64,000 nucleotides of DNA from an uncultured Verrucomicrobiota bacterium (GCA_937860055.1 CALMBO010000002.1:4594-68593); one strand, 5' to 3'; shown: positions 2,682 through 63,356, counted from the stretch's first letter. Numbers and translations: made by a program. The notes: generated from the sequence alone by a model not told the origin.

Positions 2682-2733
2682 TTTTCCATGCAATGGAAAA
2701 AGTTTCCGCGGTTTTTCCGCAGCAATGGAAAAA
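2682..2733. repeat. TTTTCCA-N-TGGAAAA palindrome cluster A (2 copies)
   Basis: TTTTCCATGCAATGGAAAA (2682-2700, perfect) and TTTTTCCGCAGCAATGGAAAAA (2712-2733, degenerate). Confidence 0.9.
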
Positions 2734-2822: not shown

Positions 2823-5351
2823 ATGTTGCCCATCCATGCCATCCGCAACGATCTCGCCGCCGCGTTGAAACGCTCGCGCCGGATCATCCTGACCGCGCCC
2901 ACCGGCTCGGGTAAATCCACGCAGGTGCCGCAGATGCTGCTGGACATGGGCGCGCTGGGCGACGGCAAGGCCGTCATCCTCCAGCCCCGGCGCCTCGCCA
3001 CGCGCCTGCTGGCCAAGCGCGTCGCCGAGGAGCGCGGCGTGAAGCTCGGCGGCGAAGTCGGCTACCAGATCCGCTTCGAATCCGTCTGCGGCGCCGAAAC
3101 GCGCATCCATTTCGAGACCGAGGGCATCCTCCTGCGCCAGATGCTTTCGCAGCCCGACCTGCCCGGCGTCTCCGCGATCCTCTTCGATGAATTCCACGAG
3201 CGCCACGTCTACGGCGACGTCACCCTCGCCCAGGCCCTGCAGCTCCAGAAAACCTCGCGCCCCGACCTGCTCCTGATCGTGATGTCGGCCACGCTCGACA
3301 CGCGCCTGCTCCAGCCCTACCTGGAACCGTGCGAACTCGTCCATTCCGAGGGCCGCGCCTTCCCCGTCGGGATCGAGCACATTCCCCGCCCGCTGCATCC
3401 CGACCGCGACACGCCGTGGGACGCCGCCGCGGCCGCCTACGAGAGGGCCACGCGCGAGGGCCACAATCCGGCCGACACGCTCATCTTCATGCCCGGCGCC
3501 TATGAGATCCAGCGCACCCTCGATGCTCTGCGCCAGACCGATGCCGCCAAGGGCGCCCTCCTCCTCCCCCTCCACGGCGAACTGCCGCCGCAGGACCAGG
3601 ACGCCGCCGTCGCCCGCTACGACCGCCGGAAGATCGTCGTCGCCACCAACGTCGCCGAAACCTCGCTCACCATCGACGGCATCCGCCTCGTGATCGACGC
3701 CGGCCTCGCCCGCGTCGCCCGCTTCGATCCCTGGCGCGGCATCAACACGCTCCTGGTCGAGAACATCTCGCGCGCCTCCGCCGACCAGCGCGCCGGCCGC
3801 GCCGGCCGCACCGCCCCCGGCCATGCCATCCGCCTTTGGACGGAAAACGAGCATGCCGGCCGCGCCGGACACGACCTCCCCGAAATCAAGCGCGTCGACC
3901 CTTCGGAAATCCTCCTCACGCTCAAGGCCCTCGGCGTGCGCGATGTCGTCGCCTATCCCTGGCTGGAGCCGCCCGAGCCCAAGGCGCTTGAACGCGCGCT
4001 GACGCTCCTGCGCGACCTCGGCGCGCTCGACGCCGGCGGCGCGCCCACCCCCCTCGGCCTGCGCATGCTGTCGTTTCCCGTCCACCCGCGCTACGCGCGC
4101 ATGCTTCTCGCCGCCGGCGAACGCGGCGCCGTGCGCCCCGTCTCGCTCATCGCCGCCATCGCGCAGGGCCGCCCCCTTCTCGTCCGCAATGCCGGCAAAC
4201 AGGCCGCCGAACAGCGCCGCGACATGCTGGGCGGCGGCGGCTCCGACCTCTTCGTGCTCATGCGCGCATTCAACTACGCGCGCCAGAACCGCTTCGACCT
4301 CGACCGCTGCCGCCGCCTCGGCATCCATGCCGCCGCCGCCCGCCAGGTCGGCCCGCTCTGGGACCACTTCCTCCGCATTGCCGGATCGCAGGGCCTCCCC
4401 GTCGAATCTTCGCCCCCCGAGGACGAGGAGATCGCCAAATGCGTCCTCGCCGGATTCTCCGACCAGGTCGGCCGCCGCCTCGATCGCGGCACGCTCCGCT
4501 GCGACCTCGTCCACAAGCGCCGCGGCGAACTCGCCCGGGAATCCGTCACCGACGAGGCCCCCCTGCTCGTCGCCAACGAGATCCACGAGATCGGCCGCGG
4601 CGACGGCGAGGTCAATGTCCTCCTCACCCAGGCCACCGCCATCCGCGAGGAATGGCTGCGCGAACTGTTCCCCAACGATTTCTCGGAACGCGTGGCCGTC
4701 GAATGGGATTCCTCCGCCAAGCGCGCCGTCGCCCGCCGCGAGGTCGTCTTCCGCGACCTTGCCCTCGATTCGCGCCCCCTCGACCCGCCGCCGGCCGAGG
4801 AGGCCGCGCGCCTGCTGGCCGCCGCCGTCCTCTCCGGCGAATGCGTCCTCAAGGACTGGGACCGCGCCGTGGACCAGTGGATCGCGCGCGTGAACCTGCT
4901 GGCCAAGGCCTGTCCCGATTGGGAGCTGCCCGCCTATGACGACGCCGCGCGCGAACTGCTCGTCCAGCAGATCTGCCACGGCGCCGTCTCCTACAAGGAC
5001 ATCAAGGACCGCCCCGTCCTCCACGCCGTCAAATCCCTCCTCTCCCCCGCCCAGCTTGCGCTCGTCGAGAAGCACATGCCCGAACGCATCGTGCTTTCCA
5101 ACGGGCGCGGCGTGAAGGTCCAGTACGACGGCGCCGCGGAACCCTTCGTTTCCGCCCGCATCCAGGAATTGTTCGGCGTCGAGTCGCTTCCCGCCCTTGC
5201 CGCGGGCCGCATCCCCCTCGTCATCCACATCCTCGCCCCCAGCCAGCGCCCCGTCCAGATCACCAAGGACCTCCCCGGCTTCTGGCGCGACCACTATCCG
5301 CGCATCAAGCAGGAACTGCGCCGGAAATATCCCAAGCACGAGTGGCGCTAG
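2823..5351 (+). CDS. hrpB: ATP-dependent RNA helicase HrpB (DEAH-box)
   Basis: LTAPTGSGKSTQVPQ (Walker A), FDEFHERH (DEAH-type), SATL and QRAGRAGR are present, plus the long HrpB C-terminal domain. I prefer the ATG at 2823 to the track TTG at 2811. Confidence 0.9.
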   Translation: MLPIHAIRNDLAAALKRSRRIILTAPTGSGKSTQVPQMLLDMGALGDGKAVILQPRRLATRLLAKRVAEERGVKLGGEVGYQIRFESVCGAETRIHFETEGILLRQMLSQPDLPGVSAILFDEFHERHVYGDVTLAQALQLQKTSRPDLLLIVMSATLDTRLLQPYLEPCELVHSEGRAFPVGIEHIPRPLHPDRDTPWDAAAAAYERATREGHNPADTLIFMPGAYEIQRTLDALRQTDAAKGALLLPLHGELPPQDQDAAVARYDRRKIVVATNVAETSLTIDGIRLVIDAGLARVARFDPWRGINTLLVENISRASADQRAGRAGRTAPGHAIRLWTENEHAGRAGHDLPEIKRVDPSEILLTLKALGVRDVVAYPWLEPPEPKALERALTLLRDLGALDAGGAPTPLGLRMLSFPVHPRYARMLLAAGERGAVRPVSLIAAIAQGRPLLVRNAGKQAAEQRRDMLGGGGSDLFVLMRAFNYARQNRFDLDRCRRLGIHAAAARQVGPLWDHFLRIAGSQGLPVESSPPEDEEIAKCVLAGFSDQVGRRLDRGTLRCDLVHKRRGELARESVTDEAPLLVANEIHEIGRGDGEVNVLLTQATAIREEWLRELFPNDFSERVAVEWDSSAKRAVARREVVFRDLALDSRPLDPPPAEEAARLLAAAVLSGECVLKDWDRAVDQWIARVNLLAKACPDWELPAYDDAARELLVQQICHGAVSYKDIKDRPVLHAVKSLLSPAQLALVEKHMPERIVLSNGRGVKVQYDGAAEPFVSARIQELFGVESLPALAAGRIPLVIHILAPSQRPVQITKDLPGFWRDHYPRIKQELRRKYPKHEWR

Positions 5352-11501: not shown

Positions 11502-12434
11502 ATGACCGCCACCCCGCCGCTCATCTTCACACCCGACCGCCCCGCGCCGCGCCTCGACGCCTACCTCGCCGCCGCCCACCCCGCCCTCTCCCGCTCCCGC
11601 TGGAAACAACTCATCGAATCCGGCCGCGTCGCCCTCAACGGCGCCCCCGCCCTCAAGCCCAACACCCCCCTCGCCCCCGGCGATTCCCTCGTCTGCACCC
11701 TCCCCGACCCCGAACCCGCCGGCCTCGTCCCCGCCGACATCCCTCTCTCCATCCTCTATGAAGACCCCGACCTCATTGTCCTCGACAAGCCCGCCGGCCT
11801 CGTCGTCCATCCCGCCCCCGGCCACCCCGGCGACACCCTCGTCAACGCCCTCCTCCACCACTGCACCGATCTCCAGGGCATCGGCGGCGAACTCCGCCCC
11901 GGCATCGTCCACCGCCTCGACAAGGATACCTCCGGCGTCCTCGTCGTCGCCAAGAACGAACAGGCCGTCGCGAATCTCGTCGCCCAATTCTCCGCCCACA
12001 CCGTCGAGAAGGAATACCTCGCCCTCGTCTGGGGCGCCCTCCGGAAACCCTCCGGCGAAATCTCCGGGCCCATCGGCCGCCACCCCGTCCACCGCCAGAA
12101 AATGGCCGTCACGGAAAAAGGCCGGCCCGCCCTCACCCGCTACGACACCCTCGCCGCCGGCCCCCTCGCCACTCTCCTCCGCATCCGCATCGAAACCGGC
12201 CGCACGCACCAGATCCGCGTGCACATGGCCCACCTCGGCCATCCCGTCGTCGGCGACGCCACCTACGGCCGCGCCCGCCACGGCCTCCCCGAAAACCTGT
12301 CCATCCCCCGCCAGATGCTCCACGCCCACGTCCTGCGCATCTCCCATCCCCGCACCGGCCGCCCCCTCGAATTCACCGCCCCCCCGCCCCCCGATTTCCT
12401 CGCCGCCCGACACGTCCTCCTGCCGCAAACATGA
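11502..12434 (+). CDS. rluD: RluA-family 23S rRNA pseudouridine synthase (RluD-like)
   Basis: S4 domain (RLDAYLAAAHPALSRSRWKQLIESGRV), the catalytic HRLDKDTSGVLVVAK, and TGRTHQIRVHMAHLGHPVVGD. Confidence 0.9.
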   Translation: MTATPPLIFTPDRPAPRLDAYLAAAHPALSRSRWKQLIESGRVALNGAPALKPNTPLAPGDSLVCTLPDPEPAGLVPADIPLSILYEDPDLIVLDKPAGLVVHPAPGHPGDTLVNALLHHCTDLQGIGGELRPGIVHRLDKDTSGVLVVAKNEQAVANLVAQFSAHTVEKEYLALVWGALRKPSGEISGPIGRHPVHRQKMAVTEKGRPALTRYDTLAAGPLATLLRIRIETGRTHQIRVHMAHLGHPVVGDATYGRARHGLPENLSIPRQMLHAHVLRISHPRTGRPLEFTAPPPPDFLAARHVLLPQT

Positions 12435-12466
12435 AATCCATCCGCCCCATCCGTCCGATTGGAAAG

Positions 12467-12517
12467 TTTTTCCATTGCATGGAAAATCCGCTGAAAGTTT
12501 TTCCATTGTGTGGAAAA
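12467..12517. repeat. TTTTCCA-N-TGGAAAA palindrome cluster B (2 copies)
   Basis: TTTTTCCATTGCATGGAAAA (12467-12486) and TTTTTCCATTGTGTGGAAAA (12498-12517). Confidence 0.9.
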
Positions 12518-12527
12518 TAAGGTGATT

Positions 12528-13064
12528 ATGCGCCACTGCCCCGTCTGCAACGTTCCGCTCGAGCCGGTGATCTACGAAACCCATCGCCTCTGGCATTGCC
12601 CCCAGTGCCGGGGAGACCTCGTCGACCTCTCCCGCTACAAGGCCATCCGGCGCCTCCCCCAAAAATCCCTCGCCGAACTCGAAGCCGAGGCCAGGGAAGG
12701 CTTCGCGGGCGACACCGCCGAAAGCCTCCGCTGCCCCCGCTGCCATGCCTCCATGTCCAAACGCCCCCTCTCCGTCCCCGGCTTCTCGCTGAACCTGGAT
12801 GTCTGCGAAGGGTGCTCCCTCGTCTGGCTCGATGGCGGCGAACTCGCCATGGCCCAGCTCGCCCACCAGGCCACCCCCGGCTTCCGCGACACGCAGGAGA
12901 TGAAACGCCGCGCCGAAGCCCTCTCCGCCGATCCCGAACGCAAGGCCGCCTTCGACGAAGCCGTCGCCCGGCTGCCCGACGCGCCCAACCCGTTCAAGGA
13001 GGCGTTCCGGGAAGCGCTCTGGGACGCCTTGTTCTCCCGCTACCCCTACCGGATCCTCCGATGA
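12528..13064 (+). CDS. double zinc-ribbon (zf-TFIIB type) protein
   Basis: There are two modules, CPVC..CPQC and CPRC..CEGC, each followed by WLD/DL-type segments. The ATG at 12528 is preceded by AAGGTGA. The track GTG at 12510 lies inside a palindromic repeat. Confidence 0.65.
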   Translation: MRHCPVCNVPLEPVIYETHRLWHCPQCRGDLVDLSRYKAIRRLPQKSLAELEAEAREGFAGDTAESLRCPRCHASMSKRPLSVPGFSLNLDVCEGCSLVWLDGGELAMAQLAHQATPGFRDTQEMKRRAEALSADPERKAAFDEAVARLPDAPNPFKEAFREALWDALFSRYPYRILR

Positions 13065-17658: not shown

Positions 17659-18251
17659 ACAAAGCCTTCTTCAAATTCTTAATTCTTAATTCTGCATTCT
17701 TAATTCTTCTTTCTGCCGCCTGCGGCCGGAAAAAGGAAGCCCCTCCCGTCGAGTCCGGCCCGCCCCCCACCATCTCCAGCCTCACCATGAAGAACCTCGC
17801 CTCCGAGTTCCCCGGCGTCATCCGCACCGCCGACGATGCCGGCAAGGTCCAGCTCATCCTCTTCCTGCGCTCCGACGACCCCGCCTGCCGCGGATCCATC
17901 GCCGATTGGAACCGGCTCCAGAAGGATTTCGCCGACCGCGGCTTCGCCCTCGTCGGCGCCGTCGTCGATGACCGCCCCGTCGCCAAGGTCGCCGCCGAAG
18001 TCGCCGGCCTCGGCGCCTCCTTCCCCATTGGTTTGGCCGACTCCCGCATCGTCGACGTCTTCGGCGGCCCCTCTTCCATCCGCGCCATCCCCACCGCCTT
18101 CCTCCTCGGCCGCGACGGCCTCGTCGCCCGCACCTACGCCGGCCACGAACCCTTCCCCGCCCTCCGCGATGACCTCTCCCGCGTCCTCGACGGCCAAACC
18201 CTCCCCCCGCGCGATCCCAAGACCGGCAAGATCACGGGAGCCGCCCCATGA
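17655..18251 (+). CDS. TlpA/redoxin-like thioredoxin-fold lipoprotein (CxxS variant)
   Basis: Lipoprotein signal MNKAFFKFLILNSAFLILLSAACG. The thioredoxin-fold core has PACRGS where WCxxC is expected. ATGA overlaps at both ends. Confidence 0.65.
   Translation: MNKAFFKFLILNSAFLILLSAACGRKKEAPPVESGPPPTISSLTMKNLASEFPGVIRTADDAGKVQLILFLRSDDPACRGSIADWNRLQKDFADRGFALVGAVVDDRPVAKVAAEVAGLGASFPIGLADSRIVDVFGGPSSIRAIPTAFLLGRDGLVARTYAGHEPFPALRDDLSRVLDGQTLPPRDPKTGKITGAAP
17674..17716 (+). repeat. ATTCTTA-family heptad repeat inside the tlpA-like signal-peptide codons
   Basis: AATTCTT AATTCTT AATTCTG CATTCTT AATTCTT CTTTCTG, translated as FKFLILNSAFLILLS. Confidence 0.85.
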
Positions 18252-19912
18252 CCCCCCACAAACGTTTTTCCATGCTGTGGAAAAAGGTGACGGAATTTTT
18301 CCACACTGTGGAAAAAAGTTTTCCATGCTGTGGAAAATTCATCCTCTCATTCTTCGTTCTTCATTCTTCATTCCTGGTTTCTTCCGCCTTCGCCTCCCCT
18401 TTCACGGCCGCGGCCGCCCGTGATTCCTTCGAAGGCCAACCCGCCGTCCGCGTTTCCTTCGATTTCCCCGCCGGCCACCACCTCTACTCCAGCTTTTCCG
18501 TCGCCGATTCCCAAGGCAGCGCCCTCTCGCCGCTTTCCGTCCCGCCGCCCGACACGAGCGATCCCAACGACATCGAACCCACTTATTCCAAACCCTTCGC
18601 CGCCTATTACGCCCCGCCCGCCTCGGACAGCTCCATCGTCGTCGGCTTCCAAGGCTGCGCCGGCTCCCTTTGCTACATGCCGGAAAGCGTCACCCTTTCC
18701 CTCGGCGGCGAACCTGCCGCGGCGCCCGCCGCCGCGGAAACCTCCGCAGGCGCGGCCGCGCTGCGCGGCGAACCCCTCCGGCTCGCCGGCTATGCCGATG
18801 TCCCCGCGTTCCTCGCCTTCCTCGACCCCTCCGCCGCCCCGCCGGCGCCTCCCTCCGCCTGGAAGCTGTTCATCCAGGATCCCGGCGAATTCTATCTCCG
18901 CCACGGCGTCCTCCCCTCCCTCCTCCTGATCCTTGTCGGCGGATTCCTCCTCAACCTCACCCCCTGCGTCCTGCCGATGATCCCGGTCAACCTCGCCATC
19001 ATCGGCGCCAGCGCCGCCGATGTTTCCCGCCGCGCCCGCTTCGGCCTCGGACTCGTCTACGGCCTCGGCATGGCCCTCGTCTATGGCGCCCTCGGCCTCG
19101 TCGTCGTCCTCTCCGGTTCCGTCTTCGGCGCGATCAATTCCTCTCCCGTCTTCAACGGCGCCATCGCCATCCTCTTCTTCCTCCTCGCCCTCGCGATGTT
19201 CGATGTCTGGCAGCTCGACTTCAGCCGCTTCCGCAAGGCCGGCGGCCTTTCCGGACGCGCGCGCCTGCCGGCCATCCTCGTCATGGGCGGAGTCTCCGCC
19301 CTTCTCGCCGGCGCCTGCGTCGCGCCGGTCCTCGTCGCCGTCCTCGCCCTCTCCGGCTCCCTCTACGCCAAAGGCGCGACCCTCGCCCTCGCGCTCCCCT
19401 TCCTCCTCGGCCTCGGCATGGCCCTGCCCTGGCCCCTGGTCGCCGCCGGCCTCGCCATCCTCCCCAAGCCCGGCGCGTGGATGGAAAAAGTGAAGAAGGC
19501 CTTCGGCGTCCTGATCCTGCTCCTCGCCCTCTACTACGGCTGGAACACCGTCTCCGCCCTCCGTTCCCCCGGCGCCGCGGAACCGGCGGATGCCGCCGCC
19601 CCCTCCGTTTTCCGCCGCATCGATCTCGGCGCGGACTCCCCCGATGCCTTCGACGCCCTCCTCCGCGAAGCCGCCGCCTCCGGCAAACCCGTCCTCCTCG
19701 ACTTCGGCGCCCACTGGTGCAAGGTCTGCAAGCTCATGGATGCCACCACGCTCCGCGACCCCGCCGTCGTCGAAAAGTTGAAGGGCTTCTTCCCCATCCA
19801 GGTCCTGGCCGACGAACCCAACCAGCCCCCCGCCCGCGACCTCCTCGCTCCCTTCGCCATCCAGGGCTACCCCACGTTCCTCCTGTATTCACAGGAGAAA
19901 AGCAAAAATTAG
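18248..19912 (+). CDS. dsbD: thiol:disulfide interchange protein DsbD (N-domain + CcdA-type TM core + thioredoxin)
   Basis: QGCAGSLCYMP (N-domain), LNLTPCVLPMIPV and LAGACVAPVL (TM cysteines), and DFGAHWCKVCK (Trx). The start is uncertain. Candidates are ATG 18248, ATG 18272 and GTG 18308, all within or before the repeat elements. Confidence 0.85.
   Translation: MTPHKRFSMLWKKVTEFFHTVEKSFPCCGKFILSFFVLHSSFLVSSAFASPFTAAAARDSFEGQPAVRVSFDFPAGHHLYSSFSVADSQGSALSPLSVPPPDTSDPNDIEPTYSKPFAAYYAPPASDSSIVVGFQGCAGSLCYMPESVTLSLGGEPAAAPAAAETSAGAAALRGEPLRLAGYADVPAFLAFLDPSAAPPAPPSAWKLFIQDPGEFYLRHGVLPSLLLILVGGFLLNLTPCVLPMIPVNLAIIGASAADVSRRARFGLGLVYGLGMALVYGALGLVVVLSGSVFGAINSSPVFNGAIAILFFLLALAMFDVWQLDFSRFRKAGGLSGRARLPAILVMGGVSALLAGACVAPVLVAVLALSGSLYAKGATLALALPFLLGLGMALPWPLVAAGLAILPKPGAWMEKVKKAFGVLILLLALYYGWNTVSALRSPGAAEPADAAAPSVFRRIDLGADSPDAFDALLREAAASGKPVLLDFGAHWCKVCKLMDATTLRDPAVVEKLKGFFPIQVLADEPNQPPARDLLAPFAIQGYPTFLLYSQEKSKN
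18265..18337. repeat. TTTTCCA-N-TGGAAAA palindrome cluster C (3 copies)
   Basis: TTTTTCCATGCTGTGGAAAAA (18265-18285), TTTTTCCACACTGTGGAAAAAA (18296-18317) and TTTTCCATGCTGTGGAAAA (18319-18337). Confidence 0.9.
18337..18385 (+). repeat. ATTCTTC-type heptad repeat inside the dsbD signal-peptide codons
   Basis: ATTCATC CTCTC ATTCTTC GTTCTTC ATTCTTC ATTCCTG GTTTCTTC, translated as FILSFFVLHSSFLVSS. Confidence 0.8.
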
Positions 19913-47531: not shown

Positions 47532-48596
47532 ATGTCCCGCACCTTCCGCAACCTGATGGTCACCGGAGGCGCCGGCTTCATCGGCGTCAACTTCATCCGC
47601 TGGCTCTTCGACCAGCCCGATGGCCCCGCCCGCATCGTGAACGTCGACAAGCTCACCTACGCCGGAAACCCCCTCTCCCTCCTTGATGTCGAAAAACGCG
47701 CCGGCGACCGCTACGTCTTCGTCAAGGCCGACATCTGCGACGCCGCGAAGATGAAAGAGGTCATCGAGAAATACCAGATCGACGCCATCGCCCACTTCGC
47801 CGCCGAAAGCCACGTCGACCGCTCCATCGTCCGCCCCGACGAATTCGTCCGCACCAACATCTTCGGCACCTACACCCTCCTCCAGGCCGCCCGCGAGCAC
47901 GCCTCGCAAATCCAGCTCTTCCACCACGTCTCCACCGACGAGGTCTTCGGCACCCTCGGCGACACCGGCTTCTTCACCGAAGACACCCCCTACGCGCCCA
48001 ACTCCCCCTACTCGGCGTCCAAGGCGTCCAGCGACCACCTCGTCCGCGCCTACCACGAGACCTACCGGCTCCCCACCACCCTCTCCAACTGCTCCAACAA
48101 CTACGGCCCCTACCAGTTCCCCGAAAAGCTCATCCCCCTCATGATCCTCAATGCCCTCGAAGGCAAGCCGCTGCCCGTCTACGGCGACGGCATGAACGTG
48201 CGCGACTGGCTCTTCGTCACCGACCACTGTTCCGCCATCTGGCGCGTCATGACCCGGGCCGCCTTCGGCTCCACCTACAACGTCGGCGGCCGCAACGAAC
48301 TCCCCAACCTCCGCGTCGTCGAAAAAATCTGCGACCTCGTCGACGCCAAGGCCCCGCCCCTCCCCGGCGGAAAACCCCGCCGCTCCCTCATCACCTTCGT
48401 CAAGGACCGTCCCGGCCACGACCGCCGCTACGCCATCGATTGCTCCAAAATCGAGCGCGACCTCGGCTGGAAACCCGCCGAAACCTGGGCCACCGGCTTC
48501 GAGCGCACCGTCGCCTGGTACCTCTCCCACTTCGAGTGGTGCGCCCAGGTCCGCTCCGGCGACTACCAGAAATGGATCGCCACCCACTACGCCTGA
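47532..48596 (+). CDS. rfbB: dTDP-glucose 4,6-dehydratase
   Basis: VTGGAGFIGVNF, HFAAESHVDRS, STDEVFG, YSASKASSDHL, DRPGHDRRYAID. Confidence 0.92.
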   Translation: MSRTFRNLMVTGGAGFIGVNFIRWLFDQPDGPARIVNVDKLTYAGNPLSLLDVEKRAGDRYVFVKADICDAAKMKEVIEKYQIDAIAHFAAESHVDRSIVRPDEFVRTNIFGTYTLLQAAREHASQIQLFHHVSTDEVFGTLGDTGFFTEDTPYAPNSPYSASKASSDHLVRAYHETYRLPTTLSNCSNNYGPYQFPEKLIPLMILNALEGKPLPVYGDGMNVRDWLFVTDHCSAIWRVMTRAAFGSTYNVGGRNELPNLRVVEKICDLVDAKAPPLPGGKPRRSLITFVKDRPGHDRRYAIDCSKIERDLGWKPAETWATGFERTVAWYLSHFEWCAQVRSGDYQKWIATHYA

Positions 48597-48627
48597 TCGA
48601 CCCGCCTCCAACGGGACGGGATCGGAC

Positions 48628-48872
48628 AGGACGGGCGGCTTCCAGCCTCCTATGGCCATACCGGTTCCCACGGGACGGGCGGCTTCCAGCCGCCCCGCTT
48701 CTCTCCCCATTCCCGGTGGCAAGATGCCGCCGCTCCCTTCCCCCTCCCCACGGGACGGGCGGCTTCCAGCCGCCCCATTTCCCCCTTCCCGGTTCGAACG
48801 GGACGGGCGGCTTCCAGCCGCCCCATTTCCCCCTTCCCAGTTCGAACGGGACGGGCGGCTTCCAGCCGCCCC
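48628..48872 (+). repeat. REP array upstream of RAYT (5 copies; the last three form a 48-bp-period tandem)
   Basis: The core ACGGGACGGGCGGCTTCCAGCCGCCCC ends at about 48650 (degenerate copy), 48695, 48775, 48824 and 48872. Confidence 0.9.
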
Positions 48873-48922
48873 GCTCTCTTTTTCTCTTGCCTCCTCCCGA
48901 CCGCTCCCGCTACCTCTTCGGC

Positions 48923-49570
48923 ATGGACGCCACCCCCTCGCCATTCTTCGATCCACGCGCCTCCATCGCCCAACATCACAACCGTCTGCCCCATTGGCAA
49001 CAGGAACAACGCCTCCAATTCGTGACTTTTCACCTCGGCGATGCCCTTCCCGTCGAAACCCGCCGCCAACTCGCCATGGAACAGGAAACCTGGAGAACAC
49101 GCCACCCGGAACCTTGGTCCGAGGCCGTCGAAGCCGAATACCGCCGCCTGTTTTCAGAACGCCTCCACGATTGGCTGGATGCCGGCCTGGGATCCGGTCT
49201 GCTGCGAGATCCGAATCTCTCGCAAATCGTGCTCGATTCCCTCCTGCATTTTGACGGCTCCAGGTTCCGCATGGATGCCCTCGCCATCATGCCCACCCAC
49301 GTGCACGTCCTGTTTCAATTGGTGCCCGACCACAAGCTGGAAGACGTCGTGCATTCGTGGAAGAGCTATTCCGCCAAACGGCTGAACGAGAAGCTCCGCA
49401 GCACGGGCGCCGTTTGGATGAAGGACTACTGGGATCGCATGATCCGCAGTCCCGAACACGGGTGGAAAACCCGGGAATACGTCCTGACCAATCCGGCCCG
49501 AGCCCGCCTGCCGGAAGGACATTTCCGCATCTGGCAGCGAACCCCGCCGCTGCTGGCCGAAATACGATAG
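48923..49570 (+). CDS. REP-associated tyrosine transposase (RAYT; IS200/IS605 Y1 HUH family)
   Basis: NRLPHWQQEQRLQFVTFHLGDALP, the HUH motif in MPTHVHVLFQL, and the Tyr block VWMKDYWDRMIRSPEH. The track ORF 48440..49570 has its N-terminus extended through translated REPs. Confidence 0.8.
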   Translation: MDATPSPFFDPRASIAQHHNRLPHWQQEQRLQFVTFHLGDALPVETRRQLAMEQETWRTRHPEPWSEAVEAEYRRLFSERLHDWLDAGLGSGLLRDPNLSQIVLDSLLHFDGSRFRMDALAIMPTHVHVLFQLVPDHKLEDVVHSWKSYSAKRLNEKLRSTGAVWMKDYWDRMIRSPEHGWKTREYVLTNPARARLPEGHFRIWQRTPPLLAEIR

Positions 49571-49576
49571 CGGATC

Positions 49577-49683
49577 GAACGGGACGGGCGGTTTCCAGCC
49601 TCCCCTTTTCTCTCCCCATTCCCGGCGGCAAGATGCCGCCGCTCCTTTCCCGATCCCACGGGACGGGCGGCTTCCAGCCGCCC
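49577..49683 (+). repeat. REP array downstream of RAYT (2 copies + GGCGGCAAGATGCCGCC hairpin)
   Basis: GAACGGGACGGGCGGTTTCCAGCCTCCCC (49577-49605), GGCGGCAAGATGCCGCC (49624-49640) and CACGGGACGGGCGGCTTCCAGCCGCCC (49657-49683). The same composite occurs at 48633-48776. Confidence 0.9.
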
Positions 49684-49696
49684 TCGCTCCTTGCGG

Positions 49697-49822
49697 TTTT
49701 TCCACGCCGTGGAAAAATAGTTTCCACACTATGGAAAAAATCGCGTATGTTTTTCCACGCTATGGAAAAAACAGGCCGGATTTTCCACGCTATGGAAAAA
49801 AGTTTTCCACACTGTGGAAAAC
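49697..49822. repeat. TTTTCCA-N-TGGAAAA palindrome cluster D (5 copies, largest)
   Basis: Copies start at 49697 (CCACGCCGTGG core), 49721 (CCACACTATGG), 49750 (CCACGCTATGG), 49781 (CCACGCTATGG) and 49803 (CCACACTGTGG). Confidence 0.9.
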
Positions 49823-49833
49823 GTCCAACCGCC

Positions 49834-49868
49834 ATTCTTAATCCTTAATTCTACATTCTCAATTCATC
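49834..49868 (+). repeat. ATTCTTA-family heptad array abutting the lysA-like start codon
   Basis: ATTCTTA ATCCTTA ATTCTAC ATTCTCA ATTCATC, followed directly by the ATG. Confidence 0.85.
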
Positions 49869-51128
49869 ATGAAAACCTTCCCCCTCACGCTCCAGCAGAC
49901 CGAAGAACTCGCCCGGAAGTTCCCGACGCCTTTCCATCTCTACGACGAATCGGCGATCCGGAACAACGCCCGGCGCCTGACCAAGGCCTTCTCCGTCTTC
50001 CCCGGCTTCCGCGAATTCTTCGCCGTCAAGGCCGCCCCCAACCCCTTCCTCCTCAAGATCCTCGCCTCCGAAGGCTTCGGCGCCGACTGCTCCTCCCTCG
50101 CCGAGCTCCGCCTCTGCGAAGCCGTCGGCCTCTCCGGCGACCGCGTCATGTTCACCTCCAACGAAACCCCCGACGCCGAATTCCGCGCCGCCCGGCAGCT
50201 GGGCGCCATCATCAACCTCGACGACATCACCCACATCGACGCTCTCGTCGCCGCCACCGGTTCCATGCCCGGAACGATCTGCTTCCGCTACAACCCCGGC
50301 CCCCTCAAGGCCGGCAACGCCATCATCGGCCATCCCGAGGAAGCCAAGTACGGCCTCACCCGCGACCAGCTCTTCGCCGCCTACGCCAGGGCCCGCGAGC
50401 TCGGCGTCAAGACCTTCGGCCTGCACACCATGGTCGTCTCCAACGAGCTCGACGAGCAGTACCACATCGAAACCGCCCGCATGCTCTTCGAGCTTGTCGT
50501 CGACATCCAGGACCGCCTCGGCATCCGCATCTCCTTCATCAACACCGGCGGCGGCATCGGCATCCCCTACCGCCCCGAGCAGAAGGCCGTGGACTACGAA
50601 ACCATCGCCCGCGGCGCGCGGAAGCTCTACGACCAGATCATCGTTCCCGCCGGCCTCGACCCCCTGGCCTACAACATGGAATGCGGCCGCGCCATCACCG
50701 GCCCCTACGGCTGGCTCGTCACCCGCGCCATCCGCCGCAAGGAAACCTACCGCTCCTACGTCGGCGTCGACGCCTCCATGGCCAACCTCATGCGCCCCGG
50801 CCTCTACGGCGCCTACCACCACATCACCGTCCTCGGCAAGGAAAAGGCCCCTGTCACGCACACCTGCGACGTCGTCGGCTCGCTGTGCGAAAACTGCGAC
50901 AAGTTCGCCATCCAGCGCACGCTCCCCGAAATCGCCATGGGCGACCTGCTCGTGATCCACGACACCGGCGCGCACGGCCACGCCATGGGCTACAACTACA
51001 ACGGCAAGACCCGCTCCGCCGAGCTGCTCCTGCGCCCCGACGGCTCCGTCATCCAGATCCGACGCGCCGAGACGCTCCACGACCTCTTCGCGACGCTCGA
51101 CCTCGGATCGGTTTCCTCGTTCCGGTAG
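49869..51128 (+). CDS. lysA: PLP-dependent fold-III decarboxylase, diaminopimelate decarboxylase-like
   Basis: FFAVKAAPNP (PLP Lys), GFGADCSS, INTGGGIGIPY, CDVVGSLCENCD. Confidence 0.75.
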   Translation: MKTFPLTLQQTEELARKFPTPFHLYDESAIRNNARRLTKAFSVFPGFREFFAVKAAPNPFLLKILASEGFGADCSSLAELRLCEAVGLSGDRVMFTSNETPDAEFRAARQLGAIINLDDITHIDALVAATGSMPGTICFRYNPGPLKAGNAIIGHPEEAKYGLTRDQLFAAYARARELGVKTFGLHTMVVSNELDEQYHIETARMLFELVVDIQDRLGIRISFINTGGGIGIPYRPEQKAVDYETIARGARKLYDQIIVPAGLDPLAYNMECGRAITGPYGWLVTRAIRRKETYRSYVGVDASMANLMRPGLYGAYHHITVLGKEKAPVTHTCDVVGSLCENCDKFAIQRTLPEIAMGDLLVIHDTGAHGHAMGYNYNGKTRSAELLLRPDGSVIQIRRAETLHDLFATLDLGSVSSFR

Positions 51129-58792: not shown

Positions 58793-58856
58793 GCGGCCTC
58801 CGCGCCGCGAAAAACCCTTTTCGGCGCTCCGGCAGAAGGCGATCGAAGCCTACTAC

Positions 58857-60564: not shown

Positions 60565-60637
60565 TTTTTTCCACAGTGTGGAAAAATCGCCCCCGCTTTT
60601 TCCATGGTGTGGAAACATTTTTCCACGGCATGGAAAA
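60565..60637. repeat. TTTTCCA-N-TGGAAAA palindrome cluster E (3 copies)
   Basis: TTTTTTCCACAGTGTGGAAAAA (60565-60586), TTTTTCCATGGTGTGGAAA (60597-60615) and TTTTTCCACGGCATGGAAAA (60618-60637). Confidence 0.9.
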
Positions 60638-63298: not shown

Positions 63299-63323
63299 TC
63301 CCACGGGAACCTCCAAAAAGCAA

Positions 63324-63356
63324 AAGGGCGGCCCACCGGCCGCCCTTCGCTTTTTC
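63324..63356. terminator. bidirectional intrinsic terminator between alaS and the gtrA-like gene
   Basis: AAGGGCGGCC-CACC-GGCCGCCCTT is a 10-bp stem. It is followed by CGCTTTTT on the plus strand and by TTTGCTTTTTGG on the minus strand. Confidence 0.75.

Follow-up and report, generated by a model that had tools for sequence, protein, structure and literature searches.

Arrays of a short AT-rich palindrome form a clade-wide family of interspersed repeats in uncultured Verrucomicrobiota

A 64,000-nt stretch of DNA from an uncultured Verrucomicrobiota bacterium (GCA_937860055.1 CALMBO010000002.1:4594-68593; hereafter the window) carries arrays of a short AT-rich palindrome. These arrays belong to a family of interspersed palindromic repeats that is real and clade-wide. 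We lean towards reading it as a clade-specific, non-autonomous family of the repetitive extragenic palindrome (REP) and bacterial interspersed mosaic element (BIME) type, and of the Rickettsia palindromic element (RPE) type where it lies inside genes. Its unit is a 19-bp palindrome made of two invariant 7-bp arms (TTTTCCA / TGGAAAA) and a loosely constrained 5-bp centre, and units are joined by linkers of fixed length (3, 11 or 12 nt), each with its own consensus. Searches of the literature for the motif, for repeats of Kiritimatiellae and for REPs of Verrucomicrobia yielded no description of the AT-palindrome family, which is apparently undescribed; the one pertinent paper deals with tagged REPs (PMC3733652).

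The window (66.8% G+C) was searched for TTTTCCA-N5-TGGAAAA with at most two mismatches. This gave 14 matches against 0.07 expected, the maximum in 100 shuffled controls being one. Together with a fifteenth, degenerate copy they form five clusters, all in gaps between called genes (Table 1), as had been counted in a preliminary reading made from the sequence alone (the sequence-only reading). The modular spacing that it described holds as well, with start-to-start steps of 21-22 or 30-31 nt (32 nt to the degenerate copy). The order of steps that it proposed for triplets, 31 then 22 nt, occurs in the window without being fixed: the mirror order, 22 then 31, is equally common, the 12-nt linker flipping along. 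The genes bordering the arrays of the window are functionally unrelated to one another.

The same palindromes recur, with the same spacings, outside the window. A scan of 185,579 species, each represented by one genome, for pairs of palindromes separated by 3-16 nt found the tandem pattern in at least 114 loci from at least 29 species-level metagenome-assembled genomes (array-bearing or comparison loci of relatives are designated L plus a number). Conservation frequencies drawn from these loci are biased, the loci having been chosen for carrying the pattern. Among the matches listed, all assemblies but one are labelled Verrucomicrobiota, Kiritimatiellia/-ae, 'Lentisphaerae' or 'Opitutia', and the exception is an 'uncultured bacterium'; this taxonomic range is a lower bound and does not prove restriction to the clade. 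The G+C content of the listed array loci runs from 53 to 72%. Two viral contigs out of 2.9 million carry the pattern. The window comes from a sediment metagenome, and relatives are abundant in lake and wastewater metagenomes. Neighbouring palindromes of the listed loci start 22 nt (n=117) or 30-32 nt (n=138) apart, with almost none between, and the few longer spacings belong mostly to interrupted arrays.

The linkers fall into classes of their own. That of 3 nt is mostly AAG or CTT, that of 12 nt has an oriented consensus, ATCGCGAAAAGT or its complement, and that of 11 nt is AACGGGCCGGA-like. Larger modules also recur. A triplet of the form P-CTTTTTCGCGAT-P-3nt-P (P for palindrome) is found in either orientation; the module P(TTGTG)-ATCCGAAAAAGT-P(TTGTG) is common to array 2 of the window and to unrelated loci in L065, L055, L048 and L101; and the five-unit mosaic of array 4 reappears in L025, L100, L034, L048 and L055. 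Since linkers and asymmetric centres are common to unrelated loci, they indicate common descent by copying and not independent evolution of binding sites. A BIME-like mosaic family, one of the roles offered by the sequence-only reading, is thus borne out by linker classes of fixed length with a consensus and by identical modules at non-orthologous loci.

The arrays gain and lose copies through tandem duplication, in which the repeated unit is a palindrome plus its linker, and they can invert. Centre identity between neighbours 31 nt apart is 72.6% in direct and 29% in inverted orientation, and between neighbours 22 nt apart 59% and 48% respectively, for 46.5% and about 46% in random pairs. Neighbouring centres are therefore alike in direct orientation, which is what growth by tandem duplication produces.

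Between related species the arrays are gained, lost and sometimes decaying. About twenty orthologous array pairs were sampled, with flanks at 55-94% amino-acid identity (one flank up to 100%). Upstream of pheS the array counts from 3 to 8 units across five species. L083 has no array upstream of hrpB (90% amino-acid identity for hrpB); homology is lost there, with a synteny break at array 1. The decarboxylase gene is preceded by an array in the window and in L118 (five-unit), and by none in L117, L119 and L120. In the window itself a decayed pair of palindromes is aligned with intact pairs of two relatives (Table 1). Polymorphism was also seen at the strain level, in a comparison with metagenome contigs that showed very high depth over the arrays: a strain about 97% identical to the window differs across 12448-12508, i.e. 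at array 2, its alternative allele being unread.

One orthologous gap (L085 2543 and L114 1303; flanks at 87% amino-acid identity) holds three-unit arrays that are mirror images of each other, with steps of 22 then 31 nt and a forward linker in L085, and 31 then 22 nt with a reverse linker in L114. This suggests either an inversion between palindromic units or an independent re-insertion.

In the midst of this turnover the arms are actively maintained, by selection or by homogenisation, even inside open reading frames (ORFs). Comparison of orthologous arrays gives 97.4% identity for the arms and 53.6% for the centres, random centre pairs giving 46.6%. Copies with 0, 1, 2 and 3 arm mismatches number 301, 74, 33 and 46 respectively (23 expected for three mismatches). 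Single mismatches fall almost solely at the outermost base, as do nearly all mirrored changes (7/11 complementary), and there is one compensatory change in the core; the test for compensatory changes was uninformative, since the arms hardly vary. Inside ORFs the constraint on the arms persists at the DNA level in two species pairs. Over the 404 copies of the at least 114 loci, which were selected to have no more than one mismatch in either arm, the 7-bp arms are invariant and the centre reads Y-R-S-Y-R. To judge from its sequence, the centre is best understood as ancestrally CA-S-TG, drifting by transitions. Positions 8 and 12, which would extend the stem, are anti-correlated (CG 154, CA 118/119, TG 92/93, TA 30; chi-square 13.3, p = 3e-4), and we infer that recognition of two half-sites on duplex DNA is probably favoured over a hairpin.

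In the REP/BIME-type reading towards which we lean, the family would be selfish, untagged and symmetric, and its multi-unit modules would be copied to new loci, because the same combinations of linker and centre stand at unrelated loci. The arms would be held constant by a putative sequence-specific trans-acting protein conserved in the clade, most likely a dimer that recognises both half-sites in duplex DNA. Expressed in helical turns, the spacings of 22, 30-31 and 53 bp approach 2, 3 and 5, and such near-integral spacing may let neighbouring sites share one face of the helix. The putative protein could be a mobilising enzyme, a host factor of the nucleoid or of topology, or both. That the arms are the recognition site of such a clade-conserved protein on helically phased arrays, forming a chromosome-organising or topology system and a partnership independent of transposases of the REP-associated tyrosine transposase (RAYT) type, is a possibility that we put forward tentatively. 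In that case the arrays would not be junk, given a DNA-level constraint that holds inside ORFs and over at least 29 species.

Several points weigh against the REP/BIME-type reading. No dispersal event was caught and no pair of empty and filled sites was resolved at the nucleotide level. The flanks of the arrays display no target-site duplication or target consensus; the weak palindromic AG...CT extension of the terminal flanks consists of linker halves. No candidate for a mobilising or binding protein emerged, and an all-against-all comparison of the proteins flanking the arrays returned orthologous neighbours only, with no recurrent master-copy or transposase gene. The invariance of the arms could come from gene conversion instead of protein recognition. 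The gene contexts of most loci come from a simple codon-usage gene caller. Lastly, intact arrays are kept in the same gap at 55-90% flank identity, and that upstream of pheS in five species, which fits a benefit to the host at least as well as a purely selfish element.

This benefit is the core of the main live rival. In it the arrays would be landing pads to which a dimeric protein binds that acts on the whole chromosome (as a nucleoid-associated or topological factor, an insulator or a global regulator); selection would keep them at each locus, their spread being secondary. Such a platform would account for orthologous arms that are 97% conserved beside centres close to random, for the DNA-level constraint in the two species pairs, for spacings near 2, 3 and 5 turns with no out-of-phase classes, for positions 8 and 12 being anti-correlated as if the half-sites were read separately, for the low number of decayed intermediates and for the persistence of the pheS array. 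It is less at ease with the conserved linkers and asymmetric centre modules of unrelated loci, which point to copying, and copying of the linkers could by itself pass on the fixed spacing. Arrays are moreover patchily present at orthologous genes, a decayed pair exists, the flanking genes have no functional coherence, and here too no candidate protein was found. We therefore regard host-selected landing pads as rather unlikely, while keeping them in view.

The position of the arrays relative to genes indicates that they sit wherever they are tolerated, i.e. in any type of intergenic gap, in either orientation, and occasionally in frame in protein loops or linkers. In the listed loci, gaps with an array are co-directional in 62 cases, convergent in 14 and divergent in 10, for 390, 55 and 50 gaps without array. 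The depletion of divergent gaps is not significant (odds ratio 0.6, p = 0.23, mostly on our own gene calls). In co-directional gaps the median distance is 32 nt to the upstream stop versus 47 nt to the downstream start (p = 0.37), and the oriented 12-nt linker follows or opposes transcription at similar frequencies (11 versus 16, p = 0.44). In an unbiased sample, 85 kb around decarboxylase orthologues with the database's own gene calls, two of the four arrays lie between convergent genes. Thus no strand or position bias relative to genes is significant. All clusters had been described as lying upstream of plus-strand genes; this is true in the window and a local coincidence, for the arrays of relatives occupy co-directional, convergent and divergent gaps on either strand.

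The arrays had also been described as strictly intergenic. This stands for the five clusters of the window as far as called genes go, but the likely dsbD start codon falls inside a palindrome of array 3, and relatives have arrays within genes. In-gene clusters are a small minority, about 6/136. Five ORFs run in frame through arrays. A dihydroorotase-like gene carries four copies in L009 (31 residues) and its orthologue in L084 two copies. In a TatD/YcfH gene (L051, L108) the array adds 11 residues immediately ahead of the HCF motif when compared with E. coli YcfH (1yix). In TilS (L053) it stands between the PP-loop and C-terminal domains, and further in-frame arrays are found in an ABC permease (L011) and in an unidentified protein (L044). 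The dsbD orthologue of L067 (63% amino-acid identity) has six copies at the same place as the window, and in both the DsbD frame (~255-300 in L067) seems to take its start from a palindrome's RTG (M-E-K...). Transcription and translation thus pass through two to four units with no loss of the host genes, and this tolerance argues against a role as efficient terminator or roadblock.

Each palindrome holds RTG-GAA-AA, a potential ATG or GTG start followed by Glu-Lys, and this accounts for the inflated ORFs at 12510, 49814 and 60578, an inflation that the sequence-only reading had pointed out. Its statement that the motif is free of stops in all three frames applies to most centre variants, and fails for centres such as TAGTG.

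The tolerance of in-gene arrays bears on the possibility that the arrays act as RNA, their hairpins in 3' ends, intercistronic regions and 5' untranslated regions stabilising or processing mRNA or attenuating transcription. Hairpin roles at the mRNA level have been proposed for many REPs. The folding energy of one copy is -6 to -10 kcal/mol in RNA form and about -6 to -7 in DNA form. Two copies spaced by 22 nt can together adopt a long nested hairpin, and the arrays reach z-scores of -4.6 to -8. Many arrays begin at most 15 nt past a stop codon, and arrays fill tight co-directional gaps that are probably co-transcribed. Metatranscriptome contigs cover an array region, those on alaS being devoid of strand or end information, with many loci mapping to the same repeat. 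Against this, the oriented linker has no transcription bias, arrays occur in divergent gaps too, and positions 8 and 12 avoid pairing (C-A 118, T-A 30 against about 46 expected). The stems are A/U-rich and lack a 3' U-tract, GC-rich bidirectional terminators exist in this DNA (e.g. 63323-63348), and two to four copies are tolerated inside translated genes. There is also no match to an Rfam family: the comparison with Rfam gave none in the window at gathering score, and with Rfam 15 under permissive settings the best sub-threshold score was 21 bits for a cut-off of 63. An action as RNA hairpins thus appears improbable.

The palindromes are not classical GC-stem terminators, as had been noted from the sequence, since their A/U-rich stems end in an A-run. 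A loose terminator scan was passed by one palindrome (49822-49802, minus strand) and by one linker-spanning hairpin in array 4 (49760-49743), in both cases because the neighbouring unit supplies the T-run. A canonical bidirectional intrinsic terminator is present at 63323-63348, in the convergent gap after alaS, with a GC-rich stem of 10-11 bp and T-runs on both strands. The arrays are likewise not CRISPRs, again in agreement with the sequence-only reading: their spacers measure 3, 11 or 12 nt and are themselves conserved, whereas CRISPR repeats, of 23-50 bp, alternate with unique spacers of comparable length.

Other binding functions were considered. The operator array of a gene-specific regulator, which the sequence-only reading had listed as a candidate, fits poorly on account of sites between convergent genes, inside ORFs and beside functionally unrelated genes. 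Clusters of inverted DnaA boxes that titrate or position DnaA were also envisaged. The general DnaA box is TTWTNCACA, and the consensus half-site TTTTCCA-C-A, TTTTCCACA, fits it. But positions 8 and 9, strongly conserved in DnaA boxes, are the least conserved of the half-site (C 68% / T 31% and A 46% / G 40% respectively), and boxes placed head to head with one base between, in many arrays and with in-gene copies, are unlike known DnaA-box clusters. We hold this function to be very improbable. The core CCA-N5-TGG, a PflMI-type restriction site, was rejected as the basis of the family: outside the arrays it is observed 20 times for about 20.5 expected, i.e. it is neither avoided nor enriched.

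The proximity of a RAYT gene called for a separate analysis. The largest array of the window lies 128 nt downstream of a gene encoding a Y1_Tnp (RAYT-type) transposase (48887-49570), and the sequence-only reading had considered that this enzyme mobilises the palindromes, i.e. that they are REPs on which it acts as single-stranded hairpins. The palindromes are able to form DNA hairpins, at about -6 to -7 kcal/mol, and they have the pentamer TTCCA in common with a GC-rich REP, GGACGGGCGGCTTCCAGCC, seven direct copies of which bracket the RAYT gene: five upstream (48629-48867) and two downstream (49582-49679). This REP (stem GGCGGC, loop TTCCA, stem GCCGCC, preceded by ACGGGAC) has no copy elsewhere in the window, and with the Y1_Tnp gene it looks like a classic RAYT with its own REPs. 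The neighbouring RAYT thus serves a different, GC-rich REP. The shared pentamer does exist in the window but is not general: in L119, the REP beside a RAYT-like gene is another GC-rich one, cccacgggcttgccccgtggg, with another loop, and no AT palindromes flank that gene. In addition, none of the 114 array loci listed has a RAYT homologue, and at most 2% of 406 copies have any given one of the tetranucleotides GTAG, CTAC, CGTC and GACG within 10 nt. At least 29 species have the AT palindrome in identical form, whereas the RAYT-linked REPs of the window and of L119 differ. Mobilisation by the adjacent RAYT is accordingly highly unlikely; most simply, both lodged in one large permissive gap.

The neighbourhood of the decarboxylase gene is variable and contains mobile or defence-type genes: the RAYT in the window (48596-49869), AbiEii and AAA_14/DUF4143 in L118 (6565-10000), RloB and AAA_21 in L117 (12143-14060).

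We compared the family with known repeats. E. coli BIMEs are mosaics of REP units bound by IHF, DNA gyrase or Pol I. Like BIMEs, the arrays combine short palindromic units with few linker motifs of fixed length, short ones alternating with long ones, and they are extragenic, in many copies, with a copy number that varies between relatives; host-protein binding in BIMEs is also the kind of role envisaged for the AT arrays. Unlike BIMEs, they are near-perfect, symmetric and AT-rich in a 67% GC genome, without a GTAG tag, they follow one another as direct copies (72.6% and 59% in direct orientation) when the REPs of BIMEs alternate Y and Z, and the unit is common to at least 29 species without RAYT association.

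The tagged REPs form two large super-families defined by GTAG and CGTC tags; they measure 20-40 bp and lie mainly in unidirectional and convergent gaps, rarely in divergent ones (PMC3733652). The AT palindrome, of 19 bp, or 21 bp with a frequent outer T/A, resembles them by its high copy number, its mostly extragenic position, its doublets at fixed spacing and some in-gene copies. In contrast, it has no terminal tag. In divergent gaps its arrays show a depletion that is not significant (the 62, 14 and 10 cases given above, mostly on our own gene calls). As for REPIN-RAYT systems (Bertels and Rainey 2011, as cited in PMC3733652), no RAYT is flanked by AT palindromes in the window, in L119 or in the 114 loci listed. 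The family thus lacks what defines tagged REPs and REPIN-RAYT systems.

Two other types of repeat share part of these properties. RPEs are single elements of about 100-150 bp; like the in-gene arrays they are palindromic, lie in frame and add a peptide segment that leaves the ORF open, but the AT family consists of arrays of 19-bp units with few in-gene copies. Mycobacterial interspersed repetitive units (MIRUs), direct non-palindromic repeats of 46-101 bp, are tied to translational coupling of the flanking ORFs. As MIRU-type variable-number tandem repeats do, the AT arrays consist of tandem units of tens of bp, in or between operons, with a variable copy number; they differ in that their units are palindromic and that no relation to translational coupling was seen.

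Most knowledge of interspersed palindromic repeats comes from Proteobacteria, and among the drivers of such repeats RAYT transposases are the best understood. The present family belongs to an uncultured and poorly studied branch of the Verrucomicrobiota, and its 14-nt recognition core stays identical in many species whose GC content varies widely. It is tagless, without RAYT link, quantised in its spacing and tolerated in genes for conserved enzymes and a transporter permease, a combination that points to a putative protein acting in trans, be it a mobiliser or a host factor. Affinity capture or phylogenetic profiling could reveal this protein and, if this reading is true, it would represent a new partnership between a repeat and a factor that is independent of RAYTs. 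In practice the repeats inflate ORF calls, supply spurious ATG and GTG starts and break assemblies. Their arrays also provide variable-number markers for typing strains of Kiritimatiellia from wastewater and digesters.

Table 1. Palindrome arrays and a decayed pair in the window (steps are start-to-start distances)
Feature	Coordinates	Palindrome starts	Composition	Context
Array 1	2682..2733	2682	Intact palindrome 2682-2700 and degenerate fifteenth copy 2714-2733 (centre 1 nt longer), 32 nt past the copy at 2682	Gap between a phosphodiesterase-family gene and hrpB
Array 2	12468..12517	12468, 12499	Two palindromes 31 nt apart, centres TTGCA and TTGTG, 12-nt linker TCCGCTGAAAGT	Ends 10 nt 5' of the ATG of a Zn-ribbon gene; other flank, pseudouridine synthase
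Array 3	18266..18337	18266, 18297, 18319	Three palindromes, steps 31 then 22 nt	Gap between a redoxin gene and dsbD; likely dsbD start codon, GTG at 18308, within palindrome 2
Array 4	49698..49821	49698, 49720, 49751, 49781, 49803	Five palindromes, steps 22, 31, 30, 22 nt; linkers ATA, AATCGCGTATGT, AACAGGCCGGA, AAG	Gap between the RAYT with its REPs and the diaminopimelate decarboxylase gene
Array 5	60567..60637	60567, 60598, 60619	Three palindromes, steps 31 then 21 nt	68 nt past the stop codon of the upstream endo/exonuclease/phosphatase-family gene, 21 nt ahead of the alaS ATG
Decayed palindrome pair	58797..58837		cctccgcgccgcgaaaaa ccc ttttcggcgctccggcagaa; aligned with intact 22-nt-spaced pairs of L015 and L081	Flank orthology with L015 and L081 at 70-85% amino-acid identity

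Variant sub-families, differing in the unit or in its spacing, were encountered at L060 (346 and 3483), L094 (1951 and 3518) and L120 (113 and 15714). One, with ATTTCCA...TGGAAAT units and a 32-nt spacing, belongs to 'uncultured bacterium AM-2014 bin-1020', where it lies in long tracts devoid of called genes. Steps of 21 and 42 nt were seen in the relative that is most distant among those sampled, with a decarboxylase 71% identical. In another type of variation a small palindrome rich in GC, tccggccgcNgccgga or tcccgcgggcgcggga, stands in or beside the T-run of a palindrome in L078 (~3600-3632), L109 (~3000-3024) and L077 (~3145-3167). It stretches the spacing to 41-43 nt and truncates the unit, and it is absent from L087, the flanks of which are nearly identical to those of L109. 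This GC-rich palindrome may be a second mini-element landing in the arrays.

The surroundings of the arrays have features of their own. In one orthologous group, heptamer-like repeats (ggttcag / ggttcgg or complement) lie between the stop codon and the array; they are found beside the arrays of L022 (5119), L036 (745) and L008 (1035), and also in L114 (~1480-1510). In the window, the segments 49822-49868 and 18338-18375, at or just 5' of gene starts, contain hardly any G and much C and T, e.g. cattcttaatccttaattctacattctcaattcatc before the decarboxylase ATG, and similar strings occur in L085 and L114. These G-poor stretches may be unstructured leaders for translation initiation.

The depth of reads and contigs was also uneven along the window. 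In wastewater metagenomes the bin 18010-18676, which contains an array, reaches about 10-20 times the depth of the flanking genes, and the depth of bin 12007-12673 is also raised, about 3-fold in X7. In a biofilm metatranscriptome the array sequence (60569-60609) is deeper than alaS. This pattern is not locus-specific, and it fits a high-copy, transcribed repeat in these communities.

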